Shown here: positions 12,582 to 57,420 of the stretch, piece after piece
Layout of the letters: each line of letters starts with the position of its first letter
Numbering within the stretch: the stretch's first letter is position 1
Source: Woeseiaceae bacterium
Lineage (GTDB): Bacteria > Pseudomonadota > Gammaproteobacteria > Steroidobacterales > Woeseiaceae
Direction: 5' to 3'
DNA: 64,000 nt
Assembly (NCBI GenBank): GCA_041555515.1
Contig: JBFFKF010000003.1
Location: 1,404 to 65,403, forward strand
Translations under genes and position numbers: made by a program
The notes under the pieces: generated by a model
Databases searched by the model: none
Seen by the model: only the letters and a program-made list of their open reading frames with translations
Told to the model about the DNA's origin: nothing

Positions 12582-13043
12582 CTAATAATTCTCAAGCAAC
12601 TTTTCGATAGCGCCGGGATCCTTGCCGACCATCTCTTTGTCGATGGTCACGGCCGGTGCGACATTGCCGGCTTTCGCGAGTGCGTCTCGCAGTATGCCGA
12701 GGAAACGCGGCGCCGCGATCAGCGCTATCTCCTCGCAGGATCCTTTATGCACGGCGTGGGCAATCCGCTGCGCCAATAGCTTTGCAAAAGCCTGAGCAGC
12801 ATGTTTTTTGGGGCCGGACTTTTCCTTCGTCATCGTATGGCGTCCCTGCCCGTGACTGTCAAAACTGCGGCCGCCACGATCGGAAATCAGCTCACCGGTT
12901 TTTTTCCGCTCGGCTTCATTCTTCATTTGAAACAGCTCGGTCAGCGCGCCACGCCTGGATTGTCGTTCATAAACGGTAGCCGCAGACTCATCGGCGACTA
13001 TGATCCAGGTTTTCCTCGTGTTGAGCAGAAGCTTAGATGCCAC
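12582..13043 (-). CDS. host attachment protein family (Pfam Host_attach-like)
   Basis: 153 aa. The pattern WIIVADESAATVYE ... SDRGGRSFDS ... FAKLLAQRI matches my recollection of the Host_attach family. Confidence 0.6.
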   Translation of the reverse strand: MASKLLLNTRKTWIIVADESAATVYERQSRRGALTELFQMKNEAERKKTGELISDRGGRSFDSHGQGRHTMTKEKSGPKKHAAQAFAKLLAQRIAHAVHKGSCEEIALIAAPRFLGILRDALAKAGNVAPAVTIDKEMVGKDPGAIEKLLENY

Positions 13044-13161: not shown

Positions 13162-15885
13162 ATGACTATGGGTTCGACCATGGGCAAGGAAGGCAAGCGC
13201 GCCACTGCCTGGAACCAGAGTACCGCCGGAGTGCTGGCAGATCTCGAGGTCGATGCCCTCCTCGGTCTTACCAACGGCGCCGTGCAGATACGCCGGCGCC
13301 GCTTCGGTCCGAACCTGCTGCAAGCCGCCAAACGCCGCAGCATCCTGTCGATCATGGCGGATCAGTTCAAAAGCGTGGTCATCCTGCTGCTCTTCATGGC
13401 AGGCGTACTCGCATTCCTTTTTGCAGATTTTGCCGAGGGACTGGCGATATTCGCGGTCATTGCAATAAACAGTTCGATCGGCTTCCTGACGGAATGGCGG
13501 GCGATTCGATCGATGGAAGCGCTGCGGCGCCTGGGCTCGGTGCAGACTGTCGTAATGCGCGACGGCAATATCCAGGAAATTCCGGCCGGCCAGCTCGTGC
13601 CCGGCGATATCGTTGTCCTCGAGGGAGGCGACATCGTCACCGCGGATATTCGGCTGATCGAAGCCGCGAAGTTGCAGGCCGACGAGTCAACACTGACCGG
13701 GGAATCCCTGCCGGTCGACAAGCAGACAGAAGCCTTGCCCGAGGCAACGCCGGTCATGGAGCGGAGCAATTCCGTGTTCAAGGGCACGGCGATTACGCGC
13801 GGTTCGGGAAAAGGCGTCGTGGTCGAAACAGGAATGTCGACCGAACTGGGGCGCATTTCCCGCCTGGTCACCGAGGCAGAGGCTCATCAGACGCCCCTCG
13901 AAAAGCGCCTCGACGCGCTCGGCAGACGGCTTGCATGGGCAGTGCTGGCCATTGGTCTGTTCATTGCGGTGATCAGTATATTGCTCGGGCGCGACGCGCT
14001 GCTCTCGATCGAAGTCGGGATTGCTCTGGCTGTTGCCGCGGTACCGGAAGGACTGCCAATCGTCGCAACGATCGCCCTGGCCCGCGGCATGTGGCGCATG
14101 GCAAAGCGCAATGCGCTGGTCGCGCGCTTGTCGGCCGTTGAAACGCTCGGTGCGACGAGCGTCATTCTTACGGACAAGACCGGGACGCTGACAGAAAACC
14201 GCATGACGGTGACAACGATTCGGCTGCCCGACGATCTCGAGATCGCGCTCGAAGGCCATGGCGATGCAGCTCACAGCAGGTTTGTGCTTCGGGACGGAAG
14301 CCTCGATCGAGATTCGGCCCAGTTGCTCGACCAACTCTTGCAGACGGTCGCGCTGTGCAGCAATGCAAGCCTGCGTGTCGGACCGGGCGGAGACGAAATA
14401 ACCATCGGCGACCCCACCGAGGTTGCGCTGCTGGTCGCCGCAAACCGGCGCGGCTTGAATCGCGACAAGCTTTTGACGCGCTGGCCCGAAATTCACGAGA
14501 TCGCATTCGATCCTGCCAGCAAGAGAATGGCGACCATACATACGGGTAACTCCCGGTTTCATGTAGCAGTCAAGGGCGCGCCAGAAACGGTCATTCCATT
14601 ATGTGCCTCGATGCAGACGCGGGCAGGTGAGGTGACACTCGGTGATCGCGATCGACAGCGCTGGCTGGATCACGCCCACGAACTTGCTCACAGGGGATTG
14701 AGAACACTCGCCGTGGCAAAAAAATCTACCGACGATCAAACGGGAAACCCTTACAAAAATCTCGTATTACTCGGTGTCGCAGGGCTCGAAGATCCTGCAC
14801 GTGAGGGCGTAAGTGAAGCGATCGATCGATGTCGCAATGCGGGTGTATCGGTCGTGATGGTGACCGGCGATCACCAGGCAACCGCGCGCAACATCGGCAT
14901 CGAACTCGGCATGGTGGACAGCGATGCCCATTCCCGCCAGTTCGTTAACGGCACCGAGCTCGATGAAATTCTCGCCAGGCCGGCCAGCGAGGAGCTGCTC
15001 GCGGCCAGGGTCTTCTCCCGCGTATCGCCGGAACAGAAACTCAATCTGATCGATTTCTACCAGCAACAGGGATCTGTCGTTGCCATGACGGGAGACGGCG
15101 TCAATGACGCGCCGGCACTCAAGAAAGCAGACATCGGTATCGCGATGGGTGTCCGGGGGACCGCGGTTGCAAAGGAAGCGGCGGCAATGATTCTGGAGGA
15201 CGACGAATTCCGCACCATCGTCGAAGCGATTGCATATGGCCGGGCAATCTTTCAGAACATACGCAAGTTCGTTGTCTATTTGCTGTCCTGCAACATCAGC
15301 GAAGTGTTGATCGTGACACTCGCAACCGTGGCTGGCGCGCCGCTACCATTACTGCCGTTGCAAATTCTGTTTCTCAATCTGGTTACCGACGTCTTTCCCG
15401 CGCTGGCGCTCGGCGTAGGACCCGGCTCGAGTAAACTCATGGAGAGGCGGCCGAGGCCCGGCGATGAGCCGGTCCTTACCCGGTCGCACTGGCTACGCAT
15501 CGCGGTACACGGAGTAGTCATATCGGCGGCAGTCCTCGTGGCAATGAGCATCGCCATACTGCATTTGCAGTTCGACGCAGCCAACGCGGTGACGGTGTCA
15601 TTCTGCACGCTTGCGATGGCACAGCTCTGGCACGTATTCAATATGCGGGAGGATCCGCGGCAATTCGTATTCAACGAGATCACGAGAAATGTCTGGATAT
15701 GGATAGCGATCGGCATTTGCCTGGCATTGATCCTGATGGCGGTATACACGCCGCTTTTGCGGGTTTTGCTGGAACTGACCGATCCGGGCGCCCGGGGCTG
15801 GCTGCTGATTGTCCTTGCCAGCTTCATTCCGCTGTTGCTCGGCCCTGCCGTGCAACACCTGGCGTTAAAGTCCGGCAAGAATTAA
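13162..15885 (+). CDS. cation-transporting P-type ATPase (P2/Ca2+- or Mg2+-type)
   Basis: 907 aa with phosphorylation motif DKTGTLT, hinge motif TGDGVNDAPALKKADIG and about 10 TM segments. Several alternative Met starts lie between 13162 and 13180. Confidence 0.9.
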   Translation: MTMGSTMGKEGKRATAWNQSTAGVLADLEVDALLGLTNGAVQIRRRRFGPNLLQAAKRRSILSIMADQFKSVVILLLFMAGVLAFLFADFAEGLAIFAVIAINSSIGFLTEWRAIRSMEALRRLGSVQTVVMRDGNIQEIPAGQLVPGDIVVLEGGDIVTADIRLIEAAKLQADESTLTGESLPVDKQTEALPEATPVMERSNSVFKGTAITRGSGKGVVVETGMSTELGRISRLVTEAEAHQTPLEKRLDALGRRLAWAVLAIGLFIAVISILLGRDALLSIEVGIALAVAAVPEGLPIVATIALARGMWRMAKRNALVARLSAVETLGATSVILTDKTGTLTENRMTVTTIRLPDDLEIALEGHGDAAHSRFVLRDGSLDRDSAQLLDQLLQTVALCSNASLRVGPGGDEITIGDPTEVALLVAANRRGLNRDKLLTRWPEIHEIAFDPASKRMATIHTGNSRFHVAVKGAPETVIPLCASMQTRAGEVTLGDRDRQRWLDHAHELAHRGLRTLAVAKKSTDDQTGNPYKNLVLLGVAGLEDPAREGVSEAIDRCRNAGVSVVMVTGDHQATARNIGIELGMVDSDAHSRQFVNGTELDEILARPASEELLAARVFSRVSPEQKLNLIDFYQQQGSVVAMTGDGVNDAPALKKADIGIAMGVRGTAVAKEAAAMILEDDEFRTIVEAIAYGRAIFQNIRKFVVYLLSCNISEVLIVTLATVAGAPLPLLPLQILFLNLVTDVFPALALGVGPGSSKLMERRPRPGDEPVLTRSHWLRIAVHGVVISAAVLVAMSIAILHLQFDAANAVTVSFCTLAMAQLWHVFNMREDPRQFVFNEITRNVWIWIAIGICLALILMAVYTPLLRVLLELTDPGARGWLLIVLASFIPLLLGPAVQHLALKSGKN

Positions 15886-26312: not shown

Positions 26313-26421
26313 TTACGCCCAGATGCTTGGATTTTCCCTGTATTTCGGTAGGGTTTCCACGCCTGAATCACAAAAACTTTAACGTCCAGTAATATTTGCT
26401 GGATGGGACGGGTCACCTCGT

Positions 26422-26937
26422 ATGAACAGCGATAGTGCGGACTTAAAGCGCAGGGAACGCTTTGACCGGGTCGTCAGCGTGCTGCACAAGGACCTGTACC
26501 GGTATGCAGCATGGCTGAGCCGCGACCCGGGAGTAGCCGAGGAAGTCGTCCAGGAGGCCCTTTTAAGGGCCTGGAAGTCACTGGACGCGCTGCGCGAGGA
26601 CAGCGCGGCGAAGTCCTGGCTGCTGACGATCGTGCGCCGGGAGAACGCGAGGTACTTCGAGAGGAAACGGCTGGAGACGGTAGATATCGACAGCCTGACC
26701 CCTGGCCAGGAAGCGATGCTGGCCGAGACCGAGGATGCCAACCTGGCCACGATGCGCGAAGCGATCTTCAGACTCGATGACGACTATCGCGAACCGCTGG
26801 TGTTGCAGGTCCTGATGGGGCACAGCACCAGGGAGATTGCAGAGCTGATGGGCATCAAACCGGGCGCGGTACTGACGAGACTGCACCGGGCGCGCCTGAA
26901 GCTGAAGGATGAAGTGGAAAAGGAGGCAGCGGCATGA
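26422..26937 (+). CDS. ECF-type RNA polymerase sigma-70 family factor
   Basis: 171 aa with region 2 (DPGVAEEVVQEALLRAW) and region 4 (EIAELMGIKPGAVLTRLHRARLKL). The stop overlaps the next ATG (ATGA at 26934-26937). Confidence 0.88.
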   Translation: MNSDSADLKRRERFDRVVSVLHKDLYRYAAWLSRDPGVAEEVVQEALLRAWKSLDALREDSAAKSWLLTIVRRENARYFERKRLETVDIDSLTPGQEAMLAETEDANLATMREAIFRLDDDYREPLVLQVLMGHSTREIAELMGIKPGAVLTRLHRARLKLKDEVEKEAAA

Positions 26938-27686
26938 GCGCCTCCGGAAATAGCATGAATTGTGAGAATTACAGAGAAGCGATAGCAGCAGATCCCTCGG
27001 AGTCGTTCGAAGGCGGCGCCGAGCATGCTGCAACCTGCGGTCTTTGCAGCGCATACAAGGCAGAGATGCGCGCACTCGATGCCACGATCCGTAACGCCCT
27101 CGCAATCGATGTGCCCGAATTGAAAATCCCGGACCTGCCGCCGATCGGTGAAGACGACCAGGTCGTCAACCTGCCGTTCAGGCGGGGACCGAGACTCACG
27201 ACACCGGCCTGGATCGGCATCGCAGCCAGTTTCGCGCTTGCCGCCGTCATCGGCGTGCAGTTCTTCGGCGCCCCCAGCTCGCCGGACGATCAATTGCTCG
27301 CGGAGCAGGTGCTGGCGCACCTCGACCACGAACCCTGGGCTTTGCAGCTAAGCAACGTGGCGGTTCCGGATGAACGCTTCAACCGCGTCGTCAATCCGTC
27401 GATCGGCACCATGGACCGCAATGTCGGCCTGGTTTCCTATGCGCAGACCTGCATCATCAACGGCCGTGCCATTCCGCACCTCGTCATCCAGGGCGAGAAA
27501 GGCCCGGTGACGCTGTTGCTGATGCCCGACGAGATGGTGAGCGGCGCCGTAACAGTCACCGGCGAAAGCGTCGCTGGCGTGATCCTGCCGCACGGCGACG
27601 GCAGCATCGCGATTATCGGCGAGCGCGAGGAAAGAATTGAAGAACTCGGAAAACGAGTAGTGGATTCAGTGGAGTGGAGCATCTGA
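26934..27686 (+). CDS. anti-sigma factor, DUF3379-like (N-terminal zf-HC2-like, single TM, periplasmic domain)
   Basis: 250 aa with N-terminal C-x3-Y...H-x3-C-x2-C and TM segment WIGIAASFALAAVIGV. Translationally coupled to the ECF sigma gene. Confidence 0.7.
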   Translation: MSASGNSMNCENYREAIAADPSESFEGGAEHAATCGLCSAYKAEMRALDATIRNALAIDVPELKIPDLPPIGEDDQVVNLPFRRGPRLTTPAWIGIAASFALAAVIGVQFFGAPSSPDDQLLAEQVLAHLDHEPWALQLSNVAVPDERFNRVVNPSIGTMDRNVGLVSYAQTCIINGRAIPHLVIQGEKGPVTLLLMPDEMVSGAVTVTGESVAGVILPHGDGSIAIIGEREERIEELGKRVVDSVEWSI

Positions 27687-27702
27687 CCGCGAAGCTGACT
27701 GA

Positions 27703-27751
27703 ACATGCCCGGGGGAACGGGCAATAACCCAAGTGCCCGTTTCGGGCATGT
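27703..27751 (+). promoter_or_regulatory. long imperfect inverted repeat / RNA hairpin in the leader of the Cys-repeat gene
   Basis: ACATGCCCG (27703-27711) pairs with CGGGCATGT (27743-27751). The inner pair is AACGGGC (27716-27722) with GCCCGTT (27735-27741), around a 12-nt loop. No T-tract follows, and RBS AGGAG at 27762-27766 lies just downstream. Confidence 0.5.
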
Positions 27752-27772
27752 GACCAGAGGTAGGAGATAGAA

Positions 27773-28231
27773 ATGGCTGAAAAGCAAGTAGCAAAACCTG
27801 TTGCGTTGGCAATAGGCGCAGCTTTGGCAGGCTCGTTTGCCGTCACCGGCACGGCCAGCGCCGACACGGGCGTGAGCCCGTTCCAGATGACCACGCTGAG
27901 CGCTGGCTATCTGCTCGGCGGTGCTGCCGGTGGCGACAAGCAGGCTAAGGAAGCCGAAGGTAGCTGTGGCGAAGGCAAATGTGGCGGCGACAAGGAAGCC
28001 GAAGGTTCCTGCGGCGGCGACAAGGAAGCCGAAGGTTCCTGCGGCGGCGACAAGGAAGCCGAAGGCTCCTGCGGCGGCGACAAGGAAGCCGAAGGCTCCT
28101 GCGGCGGCGATAAGGAAGCCGAAGGCTCCTGCGGCGGCGATAAGGACGCCGAAGGTTCTTGCGGCGGCGATAAGGAAGAAGCCGAAGGCAAGTGCGGCGA
28201 AGGCAAATGCGGTGGCGAAAAGACCAGCTAA
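27773..28231 (+). CDS. secreted low-complexity Cys-repeat protein, HvfA-like (EGKCG-type) putative RiPP metallophore precursor
   Basis: RBS AGGAG lies 6 nt upstream. Signal peptide ends ...AVTGTASA|D. The rest carries ten EG[S/K]CG motifs: EGSCG, EGKCG, 6x GGDK(E/D)AEGSC, then EGKCGEGKCG. These are the only cysteines. A strong terminator follows. Confidence 0.75.
   Translation: MAEKQVAKPVALAIGAALAGSFAVTGTASADTGVSPFQMTTLSAGYLLGGAAGGDKQAKEAEGSCGEGKCGGDKEAEGSCGGDKEAEGSCGGDKEAEGSCGGDKEAEGSCGGDKEAEGSCGGDKDAEGSCGGDKEEAEGKCGEGKCGGEKTS
27983..28162. repeat. six head-to-tail 30-bp tandem repeats (GGCGGCGACAAGGAAGCCGAAGGTTCCTGC)
   Basis: Units 1=2 and 3=4 are identical. Units 1->3 and 4->5 differ by one synonymous base. 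Unit 6 differs from unit 5 at 3 positions (one Glu->Asp). More degenerate motif copies flank the array on both sides. Confidence 0.95.
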
Positions 28232-28259
28232 GCTCCTGTCTTTGTCAGAAGAAACAAGA

Positions 28260-28289
28260 GGGCCCACGTGAGTGGGCCCTTTTTATTTT
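28260..28289 (+). terminator. rho-independent terminator
   Basis: GGGCCCAC-GTGA-GTGGGCCC stem-loop followed by TTTTTATTTT, 29 nt after the stop codon. Confidence 0.85.
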
Positions 28290-28321: not shown

Positions 28322-28822
28322 CTAACTCGCTTTCTCTGCTTGTCTAAGTTTTAGCCGTTCCACGTGTTCGATCAGGGAATCTGTGGTGTTTTTCAACATT
28401 TCCAACTCTTCGATAGTCAGATCATCGAGTTGCTCCAGGTTGTACTCGATGGTGTCGATAATCTGTTTTGACGGACGGTGCAGCGGGCGCATGAAATACG
28501 CCGTGATCGTTGCCACGATGGTCCCGAAGAACAGCATTGAACCAACGACAATCCACGCACCGCCGATCACCTGGGAGATCCCGTTGACAGGCGTATCGGC
28601 AATGCCAGCAGTGGAAAAAGCGGCTATCCCCCAATACAGTGCGCGGCCATAGCTCGTGATTGAGGTTCCCTCGGCGCCCTGTTCGGTGAAATACAGTCCG
28701 GCGGAAAAAAGCATCCAGCAGCTCAACAACAAGAAAGCTATCTTGAGTACCGGCGTGTGTGCCAGCACATCACTGATGAATCTGCGGCCGCGATACTTCC
28801 TGCTGCGCTTTGCTTTTTTCAT
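28322..28822 (-). CDS. two-TM pore-loop ion channel family protein with a non-canonical filter and C-terminal coiled coil
   Basis: TM1, pore helix (YGRALYWGIAAFS), filter-like TAGIAD and TM2 (GGAWIVVGSMLFFGTIVATI), then a heptad-like tail. Start at 28822 (MKKAKRSRKY) or 28840. Confidence 0.6.
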   Translation of the reverse strand: MKKAKRSRKYRGRRFISDVLAHTPVLKIAFLLLSCWMLFSAGLYFTEQGAEGTSITSYGRALYWGIAAFSTAGIADTPVNGISQVIGGAWIVVGSMLFFGTIVATITAYFMRPLHRPSKQIIDTIEYNLEQLDDLTIEELEMLKNTTDSLIEHVERLKLRQAEKAS

Positions 28823-29065
28823 ATAGACACCGATATGCATCGATCATCGTTGCACCATCAATTGTATAGAGTAGCCATGCCATGCACCCGACTATGGCAG
28901 CTTCGACTCATCAGCACCCCTGCACCATAATATCAGCTGAATGTCCGCTATCGGGTGGAAGGATCAGATTCGATTCTCGTATCAGGCTTGAAAGACAAGA
29001 TTCTGTCGGTGTGCAATTCCTTGCACATTGCTAATATTTTAATCCTGTTCGTATTTGGATAAACG

Positions 29066-29811: not shown

Positions 29812-30285
29812 ATGTCTGAGGAAACCAGCAGCCCCGAAACAATGAGCAGTTTCGCGGCATCGAGCGTTGGACCACCCCGCTCGTTTTATGTGATCAGCGG
29901 ACTCGCGCTGGCCTGGAATCTCGTGGGCGTGGCGCAATATATCATCCAGGTGACGATGACCGAAGAAGCGAAGGCGGCGCTGGAACCCGCACAACGTGCG
30001 CTGATGGAGTCGACGCCGACATGGCTGGTTGCCGTTTATGCCCTAGCCGTGCATACCGGTGCGCTGGGTTGCTTGCTGCTGATCCTGAGAAAGGCTTGGG
30101 CCGTGCCGGTCTTGCTCGTGTCACTTCTGTGCATCGTCGTGCAGATGGGCTATTCGCTAAGCATGACCGAAGCCATGAATGTGTACGGTGGCGGGGTGGT
30201 AGTGCAGGCCGCGTTGATCACGGTGGTCGGCATCTACCTGGTCTGGTATTCGCGACGAGTCAAGGACAACGGCTGGATCGCTTAG
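29812..30285 (+). CDS. hypothetical membrane protein (4 TM)
   Basis: 157 aa with four hydrophobic segments. No recognised family. Confidence 0.45.
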   Translation: MSEETSSPETMSSFAASSVGPPRSFYVISGLALAWNLVGVAQYIIQVTMTEEAKAALEPAQRALMESTPTWLVAVYALAVHTGALGCLLLILRKAWAVPVLLVSLLCIVVQMGYSLSMTEAMNVYGGGVVVQAALITVVGIYLVWYSRRVKDNGWIA

Positions 30286-54576: not shown

Positions 54577-54620
54577 TGCGGCAAATAACAATGCCAGGGA
54601 GACCGAACGGGCGCCTTGCC

Positions 54621-54634
54621 CCGAAAGCGGACAT
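54621..54634. repeat. GCGGACAT short repeat copy
   Basis: CCGAAAGCGGACAT in the intergenic gap upstream of the TerB-like gene. Confidence 0.6.
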
Positions 54635-54663
54635 CATGCCTTGCTACTGATATCATCCCCGCT

Positions 54664-55122
54664 ATGTCGCTGCTAGATCTTATCATTGAGAAAACTGGCG
54701 TCAGGATCGCGAGCGATACTGTTGTGAGCGATTATGAAACGCAGATATTGATCGCGTCGCTACTGGCGCTGGTTGCCAGTAGCGATGGCGGTATTTCGCC
54801 CGAAGAAAATATACGCATAGTGAATTTGCTGTGTAAACGCTTCGGACTCAAGTCGGATGAGGCGCTGGAGCTTGTTACCCGTGCGGCGGGCGAGCTTCCA
54901 AGCCGTGATCAACTCGATGAGGTTGTGGATTCCGTCAACGAAGCGCTGACGCGCAGCCAGAAAGAAGATCTAATGTTCATGGTTCTGTGCGTAATTGCAG
55001 CGGACAATCAGAAAGACGCGGAAGAAATGAAGCTGCTTGCCAAGTTGGTTGATGACCTGCAGTTGCCCGAACAATTTATGCAAAAAATCTACGAGCGAGA
55101 ATTCGACGGCCTGTTTTATTAA
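54664..55122 (+). CDS. TerB family tellurite-resistance-like protein
   Basis: Start moved to MSLLDLIIEK (ATG at 54664). Acidic helical TerB-like pattern (SDGGISPEE ... IAADNQKDAEEMKLL). Confidence 0.6.
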   Translation: MSLLDLIIEKTGVRIASDTVVSDYETQILIASLLALVASSDGGISPEENIRIVNLLCKRFGLKSDEALELVTRAAGELPSRDQLDEVVDSVNEALTRSQKEDLMFMVLCVIAADNQKDAEEMKLLAKLVDDLQLPEQFMQKIYEREFDGLFY

Positions 55123-55305: not shown

Positions 55306-57420
55306 ATGAAAATACCGGTAGTCCTGGGGCTAATTCTAGTTATCTTGTTCGCATCGGGTTGTTCTGGAGAGCCCGCGCCTGAAGAAGCGCCATCGGTCAC
55401 ACGCACCTCAGACGGGACTGTAGTCGACGATGCGGCCATGAGCGACGAATCGGCTGGCGAGAACTGGCTCGCATTCGGACGAACCTATTCCGAGCAACGA
55501 TTCAGTCCGCTCGACCAGGTGAATGACAGCAATGTCGGTAGTCTCGGCGTTGACTGGTATATGGAGCTGCCGGATGCGCGTGGCCTCGTGTCCACACCAC
55601 TGGTTGTCGACGGTGTCATGTATTTCGTCGAGAGCATGAACCGAATCCGCGCGGTAGATGCCGGCTCGGGCGAAGAGATCTGGATGTGGGATCCGAAGGT
55701 ATACGAGCACTCCGATATGCGCATCGGCTGGGAGCACAATCGCGGCATCGGTATCTGGAAGGACAAGGTATACCAGGCGACATGGGACGGCCGCCTGATC
55801 GCCGTCGATCGTGCCAGCGGTAAACAGGTCTGGAGCCAGCGCATCTATGACCAGGGCATGCCGCTCTATAACACGGGTGCACCGAAGATCTTCAAAGGCA
55901 AGGTCATGATTGGTTCTGGCGGCACGGAGGCAGGGCCGAACCGCGGTTATGTAGTGACGCACGATGCAGAGACCGGCGAGTTTCTCTGGAAGTTTTACAT
56001 CGTGCCCGGCAATCCGGCAAAAGGCTTCGAGAACGAGACCATGGAAATGGCGGCCAAGACCTGGACCGGCGAGTGGTGGGAGTATGGTGGTGGCGGTAAC
56101 GCCTGGCACGGGTTTACCTACGATGCCGATCTCGACGTCGTCTACATCGGTACGGGCAACGGTGCACCCTGGAATCAAAAGGTCCGTAGTCCCGGCGGCG
56201 GCGATAACCTGTTCCTCGACTCCATCGTCGCGCTCGATCCCGACACTGGTGCATACCTTTGGCATTACCAGAATACGCCCGGCGAGACCTGGGACTACAA
56301 CTCCAACATGGACATCGTACTGGCCGATCTGGAGATCGATGGCAAAACGGTCAAGGCCATGATGCAGGCGCCAAAGAACGGTTTTTTCTACGTGCACGAC
56401 CGCGAACAGCGCAAGCTGTTGTCTGCCGAAACCTATGTGGAGATCAACTGGGCCACCCATGTCGACCTGGAGACCGGCCGGCCTGTCGAGCGACCGGGTG
56501 CGCGCTACGAGGATGGCGAAGAACGCATTTCGCCGTCGCCGATCGGCGGCCATAGCTGGAATGCGATGTCGTACAACCCGATGACCGGACTCGTTTACAT
56601 CCCGACCATCCAGATGTCGGCCATCTATAACGACGAAGGCGTCGATTCCGACTCCTGGCAATCGGCGGTGTTCGAAGGCGACACGACGGCCGTCGCCTGG
56701 TCATGGGCAGAGGATCGCTCGCACGTCGCAGGATCACTGCAGGCGCGCGACCCGGTGACGAATACGGTGGCGTGGGAAGTCCCGATTTACGGTATGGGGA
56801 ATCCCGGCACCATGACCACGGCCGGCAACCTCGTGTTCCAGGGCCGGGTAGACGGCACCTTGCGCGCCTACGATGCGACGACGGGTGAGGAGCTCTGGTC
56901 ATATAACCTGGGTCTTGGTATTTCAGCGCCGCCGGTCACCTATTCCGTCGACGGCAAACAGTACCTCGCGGTACTCGTCGGCTATGGCGGTGGGCCGGCC
57001 GGCCTGGGCGGGGATATATCCGTCGCCAATGGCTGGGCATATGGCGTTCACGACCGGCGCCTGGTCGCGTTCTCGCTGGACGGCGATACGGCTCTGCCGG
57101 AGCAGCCGCCGCCCGCAGCCGCGCAGCCGATCGAGATGCCGCAGTTTGAAATGGATGCTGCGATGGCCGAGCAGGGCGTTTACGAATACGGCGTGCGCTG
57201 CGCAGTGTGTCACGGTTTCGATGCCATCTCACCGGGCATGGCGCCTGATCTGAGGGCGTCACCGGTTCTCGCCTCTACAGAAGCGTTCGCCGACGTGGTT
57301 CGTGCGGGTAACCGGCAGCACAACGGCATGCCGATCTACGAGCACCTCAGCGACGAACAGTTGCTGCAGATTCGACACTATGTGCGTCGTGAGGCGGAAG
57401 CGGTGTTGGGCGCACAATAG
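55306..57420 (+). CDS. PQQ-dependent dehydrogenase (methanol/ethanol family) with C-terminal cytochrome c domain; lipoprotein
   Basis: 704 aa with lipobox LFASGC and beta-propeller W-motif repeats (GRLIAVDRASGKQVW, DTGAYLWHY, GTLRAYDATTGEELW). The C-terminal haem site is CAVCH. Confidence 0.88.
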   Translation: MKIPVVLGLILVILFASGCSGEPAPEEAPSVTRTSDGTVVDDAAMSDESAGENWLAFGRTYSEQRFSPLDQVNDSNVGSLGVDWYMELPDARGLVSTPLVVDGVMYFVESMNRIRAVDAGSGEEIWMWDPKVYEHSDMRIGWEHNRGIGIWKDKVYQATWDGRLIAVDRASGKQVWSQRIYDQGMPLYNTGAPKIFKGKVMIGSGGTEAGPNRGYVVTHDAETGEFLWKFYIVPGNPAKGFENETMEMAAKTWTGEWWEYGGGGNAWHGFTYDADLDVVYIGTGNGAPWNQKVRSPGGGDNLFLDSIVALDPDTGAYLWHYQNTPGETWDYNSNMDIVLADLEIDGKTVKAMMQAPKNGFFYVHDREQRKLLSAETYVEINWATHVDLETGRPVERPGARYEDGEERISPSPIGGHSWNAMSYNPMTGLVYIPTIQMSAIYNDEGVDSDSWQSAVFEGDTTAVAWSWAEDRSHVAGSLQARDPVTNTVAWEVPIYGMGNPGTMTTAGNLVFQGRVDGTLRAYDATTGEELWSYNLGLGISAPPVTYSVDGKQYLAVLVGYGGGPAGLGGDISVANGWAYGVHDRRLVAFSLDGDTALPEQPPPAAAQPIEMPQFEMDAAMAEQGVYEYGVRCAVCHGFDAISPGMAPDLRASPVLASTEAFADVVRAGNRQHNGMPIYEHLSDEQLLQIRHYVRREAEAVLGAQ

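Follow-up and report, generated by a model that had tools for sequence, protein, structure and literature searches.

Introduction

Captophorins, among them oxazolin, fontiphorin and the bufferins, are a large and recently recognised class of copper-handling peptides, so far defined via their MNIO maturase, an iron enzyme. Here we describe a member of the precursor family of this class encoded in a 64-kb stretch of DNA (58.8% GC; hereafter the window) from a Woeseiaceae bacterium, which belongs to a marine-sediment clade. Three same-strand (+) genes at 26422-28231 encode an extracytoplasmic function (ECF) sigma factor, a DUF3379 protein that is a putative anti-sigma factor, and a 152-residue secreted repeat protein. 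We refer to these genes as the trio. The locus had been picked out in an earlier reading of the window made without database searches (the sequence-only reading).

In Haemophilus influenzae, the hvfX-A-B-C cluster encodes the precursor HvfA (Manley et al., 2024, PMC11252979), which resembles the window protein in its EGKCG chemistry family and its signal peptide. The product of the HvfA system binds Cu(I), and its expression needs the ECF sigma factor RpoE2, which responds to HOCl/oxidative stress. RpoE2 is encoded elsewhere in the genome and is paired with a 67-residue cytoplasmic anti-sigma factor. Unlike the arrangement in the window, the maturase gene is adjacent to that of HvfA. The hvf (doxX) operon depends on SigE in Neisseria; there and in H. 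influenzae, the anti-sigma factors are small cytoplasmic zinc proteins and the sigma genes lie elsewhere.

The FonA cluster of Fontimonas thermophila (Gadgil et al., 2025, PMC12668002) also encodes a precursor with a Sec signal peptide, a (V/P)FxxxxLxxGY leader and E-G-x-C-G repeats. Both FonA and the window precursor are rich in Gly, Glu and Lys and pass the NCBIfam model NF050137. In the Nevskiales, to which FonA belongs, the gene order is DoxX-precursor-MNIO-PME1 with no sigma gene, whereas in the window the sigma and DUF3379 genes lie upstream and MNIO, PME1 and DoxX are absent. The cysteines of the window protein mostly occur one per 10-residue unit and follow Ser, whereas FonA has paired EGKCGEGKCG. 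In vitro, FonBC accepts Ala, Arg and Thr at position 3 of the motif and only small residues at position 5. Conserved arginines engage the Glu at position 1, and the FonA leader motif falls in the leader region of the minimal in-vitro FonBC substrate (Gadgil et al., 2025).

A Pseudomonas aeruginosa locus (L089) has the order sigma/zf-HC2/precursor/DUF692/DUF2063/DoxX and is located next to oprP. Like the window, it has a sigma/anti-sigma pair immediately before the precursor gene, and its precursor is homologous to that of the window, with EGSCG motifs and the same type of leader. Its sigma factor is of another ECF type (best models PRK11922 and TIGR02943, both below cut-off), its anti-sigma factor is a soluble zf-HC2 protein of 79 residues, and the maturase and DoxX genes follow the precursor. 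The bufferins Buf1 and Buf2 (Leprevost et al., 2024; PMC12452194) are Sec-exported, Cys-based periplasmic copper buffers, some of them encoded with a sigma factor and NrsF. They differ from the window protein in precursor fold and family (DUF2282; 6 or 12 Cys), and their anti-sigma factor is NrsF, not DUF3379. A 2025 survey of MNIOs (PMC12452194) found that sizeable proportions of the precursors in two bufferin families are not MNIO-linked, and a legend in it mentions stand-alone precursors in all three families.

The protein family, its chemistry, its control by ECF sigma factors and the existence of stand-alone precursors are already published. Three findings are new: that the sigma(PRK12517)-DUF3379-precursor operon is conserved, that it is confined to Woeseiaceae-like bacteria and that it and MNIO contexts exclude each other. 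The sequence-only reading had suggested control by the sigma/anti-sigma pair. The pair does adjoin the precursor gene, but ECF control is precedented by RpoE2, SigE and the P. aeruginosa pair. What is new relative to these precedents is the type of pair, a PRK12517 sigma factor with DUF3379. In the literature that we searched, DUF3379 is mentioned in a single paper, on an unrelated subject.

Results

The trio is conserved across Woeseiaceae

The genes of the trio and the main elements of the precursor are:

26422-26937, + strand: ECF sigma factor of the PRK12517 type, 171 aa (Pfam Sigma70_r2 and r4_2, NCBIfam NF009170)
26934-27686, + strand: DUF3379 membrane protein, putative anti-sigma factor, 250 aa (PF11859)
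27773-28231, + strand: HvfA/FonA (captophorin) family precursor, 152 aa (NF050137)
27773-27862, + strand: signal peptide of the precursor, residues 1-30 (by inspection only)
27875-27919, + strand: leader motif SPFQMTTLSAGYLLG, residues 35-49, common to FonA
27983-28178, + strand: 30-bp tandem DNA repeat, 6.5 copies with 96% matches (Tandem Repeats Finder), encoding GGDKEAEGSC units

Database searches gave 2,663 homologues of the precursor; the best of them are named Woeseia, Woeseiaceae or unclassified Gammaproteobacteria. A scan with one genome per species returned 80 precursor loci, essentially all from metagenome-assembled genomes of Woeseiaceae. With the window and the earlier contigs included, 85 loci were available, and a sigma gene and a DUF3379 gene are found directly upstream of the precursor in 80 of them. 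The other five comprise two with DUF3379 where the sigma gene is cut by the contig end, two at a contig edge and one (L034) without the pair. The trio is present in 82 of the 83 informative loci of this first set and in 45 metagenome loci. Its surroundings are also conserved. Synteny with hemB, aroE and gor upstream and tag downstream is kept in more than 80 species-level genomes.

A scan with the L034 protein gave a metagenome sample of 80 loci. These include 45 with the order sigma-DUF3379-precursor and no MNIO, and 20 with precursor-MNIO(-PME1-DoxX) and no DUF3379, some of which are preceded by a sigma/zf-HC2 pair. The other 15 belong to a third type or offer too little sequence. The precursor family occurs in two mutually exclusive contexts, DUF3379 or MNIO. 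The sequence-only reading had proposed tabulating the neighbourhoods of homologues. This tabulation showed that homologues do occur with MNIO, in the 20 metagenome loci and in P. aeruginosa.

In a third context, the precursor has neither sigma/DUF3379 nor MNIO in the available sequence (L094, 9971-10687; L034, 9186-9572). The L094 precursor adjoins a divergent gene for a 740-residue outer-membrane-receptor-like protein, by eye of the TonB-dependent type. The L034 precursor adjoins a resistance-nodulation-division (RND) pump. The C-terminus of the L094 protein has a hydrophobic stretch followed by RRNKRS and resembles a GlyGly-CTERM or PEP-CTERM sorting tail. Another locus, L157 (3194-7390), contains a sigma/zf-HC2 pair, a divergent DoxX gene and two tandem precursors without PFxxxxLxxGY, followed by MNIO-PME1. 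L157 thus indicates that leaderless-type and FonA-type precursors both occur with similar maturases. The PLSDB 'plasmid' records of L089 (CP075839.1) and L091 (NZ_AP026896.1) look chromosomal: these records are a 160-kb P. aeruginosa sequence with gltX, oprP and the MNIO cluster and a 4.9-Mb Aeromonas caviae sequence.

The secreted protein resembles FonA

The precursor begins with MAEKQVAKPVALAIGAALAGSFAVTGTASA|D, in which n, h and c regions and an AxA site are apparent by inspection. The predicted signal peptide has a Lys-containing n-region, the hydrophobic stretch PVALAIGAALAGSFAV and the site ASA|D, and is kept in all orthologues. It is followed by the segment SPFQMTTLSAGYLL and then by the repeats. 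Exactly ten E-G-x-C-G motifs are found between residues 62 and 147, seven with Ser and three with Lys at the variable position. The signal peptide and the ten EG(S/K)CG motifs, seven of ten with Ser, had been described at 27773-28231 in the sequence-only reading, and they can be read directly from the sequence.

The number of repeat units varies. The window protein has 152 residues and 10 Cys, compared with 132 residues and 8 Cys in P0001, which is 98% identical and two units shorter. Across orthologues, the count is 3-16 Cys. The exact copy number in the assembly is uncertain, since short-read contigs of near-identical strains end within the repeat. An exact look-up of the precursor sequence returned no record, and look-ups with the anti-sigma sequence returned only short contigs ending in the repeat.

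On NF050137 (KCGExKCG_twice), the window precursor scores 33.1 bits (E 3.1e-8; cut-off 19.5). The match comes from its terminal EGKCGEGKCG pair. The MNIO-linked P. aeruginosa homologue, which was reached by tblastn and matches the window precursor in phmmer with an E value of 2.7e-13, has a comparable score of 32.1 bits. On the HvfA equivalog model NF050188 (cut-off 95 bits), the window precursor fails with 15.6 bits, and HvfA and FonA score 128 and 49 bits, respectively. No Pfam family matches the precursor at E up to 1, including DUF2282/PF10048 (Buf1).

The leaders are PFQMTTLSAGY in the window protein, VFQASDLGAGY in FonA and PFAVQELSSGY in the P. aeruginosa homologue. H. influenzae HvfA has no PFxxxxLxxGY leader. 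Because the leader is common to FonA and lacking in HvfA, the window precursor is of the FonA type. On the basis of its leader and profile scores, the window protein is a FonA-type member of the HvfA/FonA captophorin precursor family. The HvfA class proposed in the sequence-only reading stands at the level of NF050137. It does not stand at the level of the HvfA equivalog, and the leader places the protein closer to FonA. The modification of captophorin cysteines that this reading cited, oxazolone/thioamide, has been revised to 5-thiooxazole in work of 2025-2026.

Trio-linked and MNIO-linked precursors share their leader and core motif

We compared 79 trio-linked with 19 MNIO-linked precursors. 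The residues around the cysteines are:

Position -3: trio-linked E 99%; MNIO-linked E 98%
Position -2: trio-linked G 94%, A 6%; MNIO-linked G 93%, A 7%
Position -1: trio-linked S 66%, K 21%; MNIO-linked K 58%, S 35%
Position +1: trio-linked G 99%; MNIO-linked G 96%

Over the 709 cysteines in 80 trio orthologues, the motif reads E (99%), G/A (100%), x, C, G (99%). The pattern corresponds to the substrate tolerance of FonBC in vitro. By these counts, the core motif of the trio-linked precursors is indistinguishable from that of the MNIO-linked ones. The leader residues P, F, L, G and Y are 96-100% conserved in the 79 trio-linked precursors, and the identical residues are conserved in the 19 MNIO-linked precursors.

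The sequence-only reading had treated Ser in place of Lys as distinctive. The same EGSCG-GGDK layout is also found in the MNIO-linked L106, L152, L142 and L160, and FonBC tolerates Ala, Arg and Thr at this position. L106 consists of EGSCGEGKCG, six GGDK..EGSCG units and EGKCGEGKCG, a layout like that of the window protein, and is directly followed by MNIO-PME1-DoxX.

No maturase gene is found at the locus

An MNIO profile hidden Markov model was built from three MNIOs (P. aeruginosa, FonB and HvfB), and a PME1/DUF2063 profile from two proteins. Both were run with hmmsearch --max on the 2.1 million residues of all six-frame open reading frames (ORFs) from the window and from 88 related loci. 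Nothing was found at E < 1 for MNIO (DUF692, PF05114) or DUF2063 (PF09836) in the window or the 88 related loci. The P. aeruginosa positive control was the sole scoring locus (MNIO E 2.6e-162, PME1 E 2e-143). The sequence-only reading had recognised no DUF692 or DUF2063 gene in the 64 kb, and these profile searches, in which the controls score, bear this out.

A phmmer search with the P. aeruginosa DoxX gave no match in the window or the trio loci. Pfam scans of the window ORFs revealed ordinary housekeeping genes and no maturase. A 157-residue membrane protein at 29812-30285 was considered as a DoxX analogue and rejected, having no Pfam match at E up to 1. In a search for FonB homologues, the top 120 were only Nevskiales-like, with at least 67% identity, and are uninformative on Woeseiaceae. 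Woeseia and DUF3379 were not found in the supplements of three papers, the per-genome table of the 2025 survey being covered in part.

The sigma factor and the DUF3379 protein

The window sigma factor matches Pfam Sigma70_r2 (E 1.5e-13) and r4_2 (E 3e-13). Its pass on NF009170/PRK12517 is marginal, 197.7 bits against a cut-off of 197. The DUF3379 protein matches PF11859 with an E value of 8e-29 and 101 bits (cut-off 33.2), its residues 8-243 aligning with positions 1-229 of the 232-position profile. The start of its gene overlaps the stop of the sigma gene as ATGA. The two genes are translationally coupled, as the sequence-only reading had stated; the ATGA overlap and the Pfam and NCBIfam matches agree with it on the coupling and on both families.

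The predicted topology of the DUF3379 protein is a helical N-terminal domain in the cytoplasm, a single transmembrane helix (about residues 92-110) and a C-terminal domain in the periplasm. A zinc-finger-like motif, C10/H31-x3-C35-x2-C38, is found in the N-terminal domain. Residues C10, H31, C35, C38, H129, C173 and H182 are invariant in 34 orthologues. In a comparison with zinc-binding anti-sigma (ZAS)/zf-HC2 proteins, H-x3-C-x2-C is present, and Pfam zf-HC2 gives no match at E up to 1. The conserved residues suggest metal or redox sensing. The gene order and the motif point to an anti-sigma role for DUF3379. An AlphaFold2 model of the protein was poor, with a mean pLDDT (predicted local distance difference test score) of 55 from 34 shallow sequences, and a PDB sequence search found no relative.

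Sigma/DUF3379 pairs are also found in Pseudoalteromonas and Aeromonas. They are of the PRK12517 type and translationally coupled, and the sigma factors score 280-312 bits on NF009170. The periplasmic H129, C173 and H182 are kept in their DUF3379 proteins (L090, 8001-8720; L091, 8001-8744). The cytoplasmic HxxxCxxC is found in Woeseiaceae DUF3379 only and is missing from those of Pseudoalteromonas and Aeromonas. No EGxCG gene or MNIO is located within 8 kb of these pairs; in Pseudoalteromonas, the next gene encodes a Tim44-like protein. The sigma/DUF3379 pair is thus a module of general use, which Woeseiaceae have coupled to the precursor. SbrIR of P. aeruginosa is described as an envelope-stress system. 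SbrR may be a DUF3379 protein, and SbrI/SbrR may be related to these pairs.

Operon signals and RNA elements

Additional features of the locus are:

26389-26414, + strand: bipartite, promoter-like motif GTAATAT-N13-CGGGTC, with its end 7 nt upstream of the sigma start codon
27704-27750, + strand: GC-rich stem-loop region with two GCCCG...CGGGC hairpins, which can nest (RNA fold)
27762-27767, + strand: strong Shine-Dalgarno sequence AGGAGA, 5 nt before the precursor ATG
28256-28283, + strand: intrinsic terminator with a 12-bp stem (7 GC pairs) and a loop of 4, then TTTTTATTTT
28322-28840, - strand: convergent Ion_trans-type gene downstream of the trio (Pfam)

Of 57 distinct Woeseiaceae loci, 46 have GTAATAA-N13-CGGGTC-N7-ATG with fixed spacing. 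The sigma gene lacks a Shine-Dalgarno sequence. From this layout, the sigma transcript may be leaderless and its promoter autoregulated, a combination that is unusual for Gammaproteobacteria. At up to 2 mismatches, the motif has a single occurrence in the window, so the precursor is most simply co-transcribed with the pair. A second sigma-dependent promoter before the precursor was considered and rejected: only a weak GCAATAA...CGGGCA likeness is found, in a minority of loci, and the window has no second site.

The precursor ORF is separated from the anti-sigma gene by an 86-nt spacer. The stem-loop region is part of this spacer: it follows the anti-sigma stop, precedes the ribosome-binding site of the precursor and lies some 20-25 nt upstream of the precursor start codon. 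Its folding energy is -34 kcal/mol (z = -3.85), and none of 200 shuffles is as stable. A hairpin is present at the equivalent position in most orthologous loci (L005-L088), with a loop of 3 to 6 nt, and is duplicated in the window. Compensatory variants include GCCTG/CAGGC (L032, L041, L042), GTACCTT/AAGGTAC (L015) and GTTCC/GGAAC (L076). Conservation was judged from per-sequence folds; RNAalifold on a MAFFT alignment gave only 5 pairs because the loop lengths differ. The region has no T-run and matches no Rfam family. Possible roles are mRNA processing, mRNA stability or attenuation. The (T)AGGAGA downstream of it is conserved across loci. The strong terminator and the convergent ion-channel gene noted in the sequence-only reading correspond to the stem at 28256-28283 and the Ion_trans-type gene.

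Other genes in the window include a Host_attach/baeRF-family-12 protein (12582-13043, -), a putative P-type cation ATPase identified by eye from DKTGTLT (13162-15885, +), a TerB-domain protein (54616-55122, +) and a pyrroloquinoline quinone (PQQ) dehydrogenase with a cytochrome c domain (55306-57420, +). None of these four genes has a synteny link to the trio.

Discussion

We propose that the trio is an envelope or metal-stress operon. The DUF3379 membrane anti-sigma factor would keep the ECF sigma factor inactive until a signal arrives. Sensing could fall to the periplasmic His-Cys-His domain of DUF3379, to its cytoplasmic zinc-finger-like motif, or to both. Once released, the sigma factor would transcribe its own operon from the GTAATAA-N13-CGGGTC promoter, and the precursor would be co-transcribed. 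Translation from the strong ribosome-binding site would yield a protein for Sec export that is rich in glycine and acidic residues and has ten EGxCG sites. Before export, a cytoplasmic MNIO-PME1 (DUF692-DUF2063) pair encoded at a distance, in a split gene cluster, would turn the cysteines into 5-thiooxazoles. Once its signal peptide is cleaved, the product would act as a periplasmic buffer for Cu(I) or other soft metals.

The step in this scheme that most needs weighing is conversion by an MNIO-PME1 pair encoded elsewhere in the genome. We favour it tentatively and would place it just short of probable. Maturation in trans is favoured because the leader and core positions that are important in maturase-linked relatives are undiminished in the trio-linked precursors.

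Several observations weigh against it. The window extends 27.7 kb upstream and 35.8 kb downstream of the precursor and is free of maturase genes throughout. No MNIO, PME1 or DoxX gene is located within 10 kb of about 127 sigma-DUF3379-precursor loci, essentially all from Woeseiaceae, and DUF3379 and MNIO occur together in none of the 80 metagenome loci. The residue before the conserved leader Leu is acidic in 79% of the MNIO-linked precursors and never in the trio-linked ones. Almost all of the more than 24,000 published MNIO-PME1 loci have their own adjacent precursor. Woeseiales are missing from the list of orders with MNIO-PME1 clusters in Table S3 of Gadgil et al. (2025). We gave this absence less weight because the table counts only clusters with a local precursor and would miss a split arrangement.

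The lack of a maturase at these loci, the strict exclusion of the two contexts, the absence of Woeseiales from that list and the rarity of precursor-less MNIO-PME1 loci all speak for another reading. Here, Woeseiaceae would have no MNIO-PME1, and the exported protein would work unmodified as a periplasmic Cys/Glu-rich sponge for Cu, Zn, Cd or HOCl-type oxidants. Such a sponge could have been kept after loss of the maturase, or it could belong to a branch of the family that works independently of a maturase. With a promoter-like motif and a terminator of its own, the trio gives the impression of a self-contained unit. HvfA without modification still retains 2-3 Cu(I), and the 2025 survey (PMC12452194) acknowledges precursors without a linked MNIO, including stand-alone genes. 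However, HvfA alone binds Cu(I) more weakly than bicinchoninic acid and forms disulfides, and exported free thiols would oxidise in the periplasm. The near-invariant leader and the E-G-x-C-G rule match the substrate rules of the maturase and are hard to explain without one, unless the leader has another partner. We consider the sponge possible but doubtful. Its wider form, in which Woeseiaceae lack any MNIO-PME1 and the trio is complete and maturase-independent, with a product that is an unmodified buffer or docks through its leader on DUF3379 in a feedback loop, seems to us unlikely.

The secreted protein could instead be mainly a signalling partner, its leader or metal-loaded repeats binding the DUF3379 periplasmic domain and feeding back on the sigma factor. 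The precursor is fixed beside DUF3379 in more than 120 loci, and the periplasmic domain contains the invariant His-Cys-His set. We know of no leader peptidase for the captophorin precursor family, so the leader would stay on the mature protein, of which it is the best-conserved segment. Such a role is one that we infer rather than observe, and several points speak against it. The sigma/DUF3379 pairs of Pseudoalteromonas and Aeromonas lack a precursor neighbour, the leader residues are equally conserved in MNIO-linked relatives without DUF3379, and a variation from 3 to 16 Cys suits capacity better than a specific ligand. We regard a mainly signalling function as improbable.

That the precursor ORF is a low-complexity artefact or a decaying remnant, as the label 'uncharacterized low-complexity protein' given to homologues by the Joint Genome Institute (JGI) and an overlapping antisense ORF of 276 aa might suggest, is effectively refuted by conservation, judged from the signal peptide, leader, strong Shine-Dalgarno sequence and terminator, from a frame that has stayed open in about 80 species-level genomes although the repeat turns over, and from Cys, Glu and Gly positions that are 99% conserved.

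Annotation pipelines will call the window protein a 'modified RiPP metallophore' (RiPP, ribosomally synthesised and post-translationally modified peptide), though no maturase is in sight. Surveys mention precursors without a nearby maturase and do not examine them; here, one of them is a fixed, clade-wide operon with its regulators. The host clade, Woeseiaceae, is very abundant in marine sediments. The trio offers a clean system in which to ask whether orphan precursors are modified in trans or stay unmodified, and which signal is sensed by DUF3379. The finding would gain in interest if complete genomes turn out to contain no MNIO. In that case, a family of RiPP precursors would have been turned to a new use, as ordinary secreted stress proteins.

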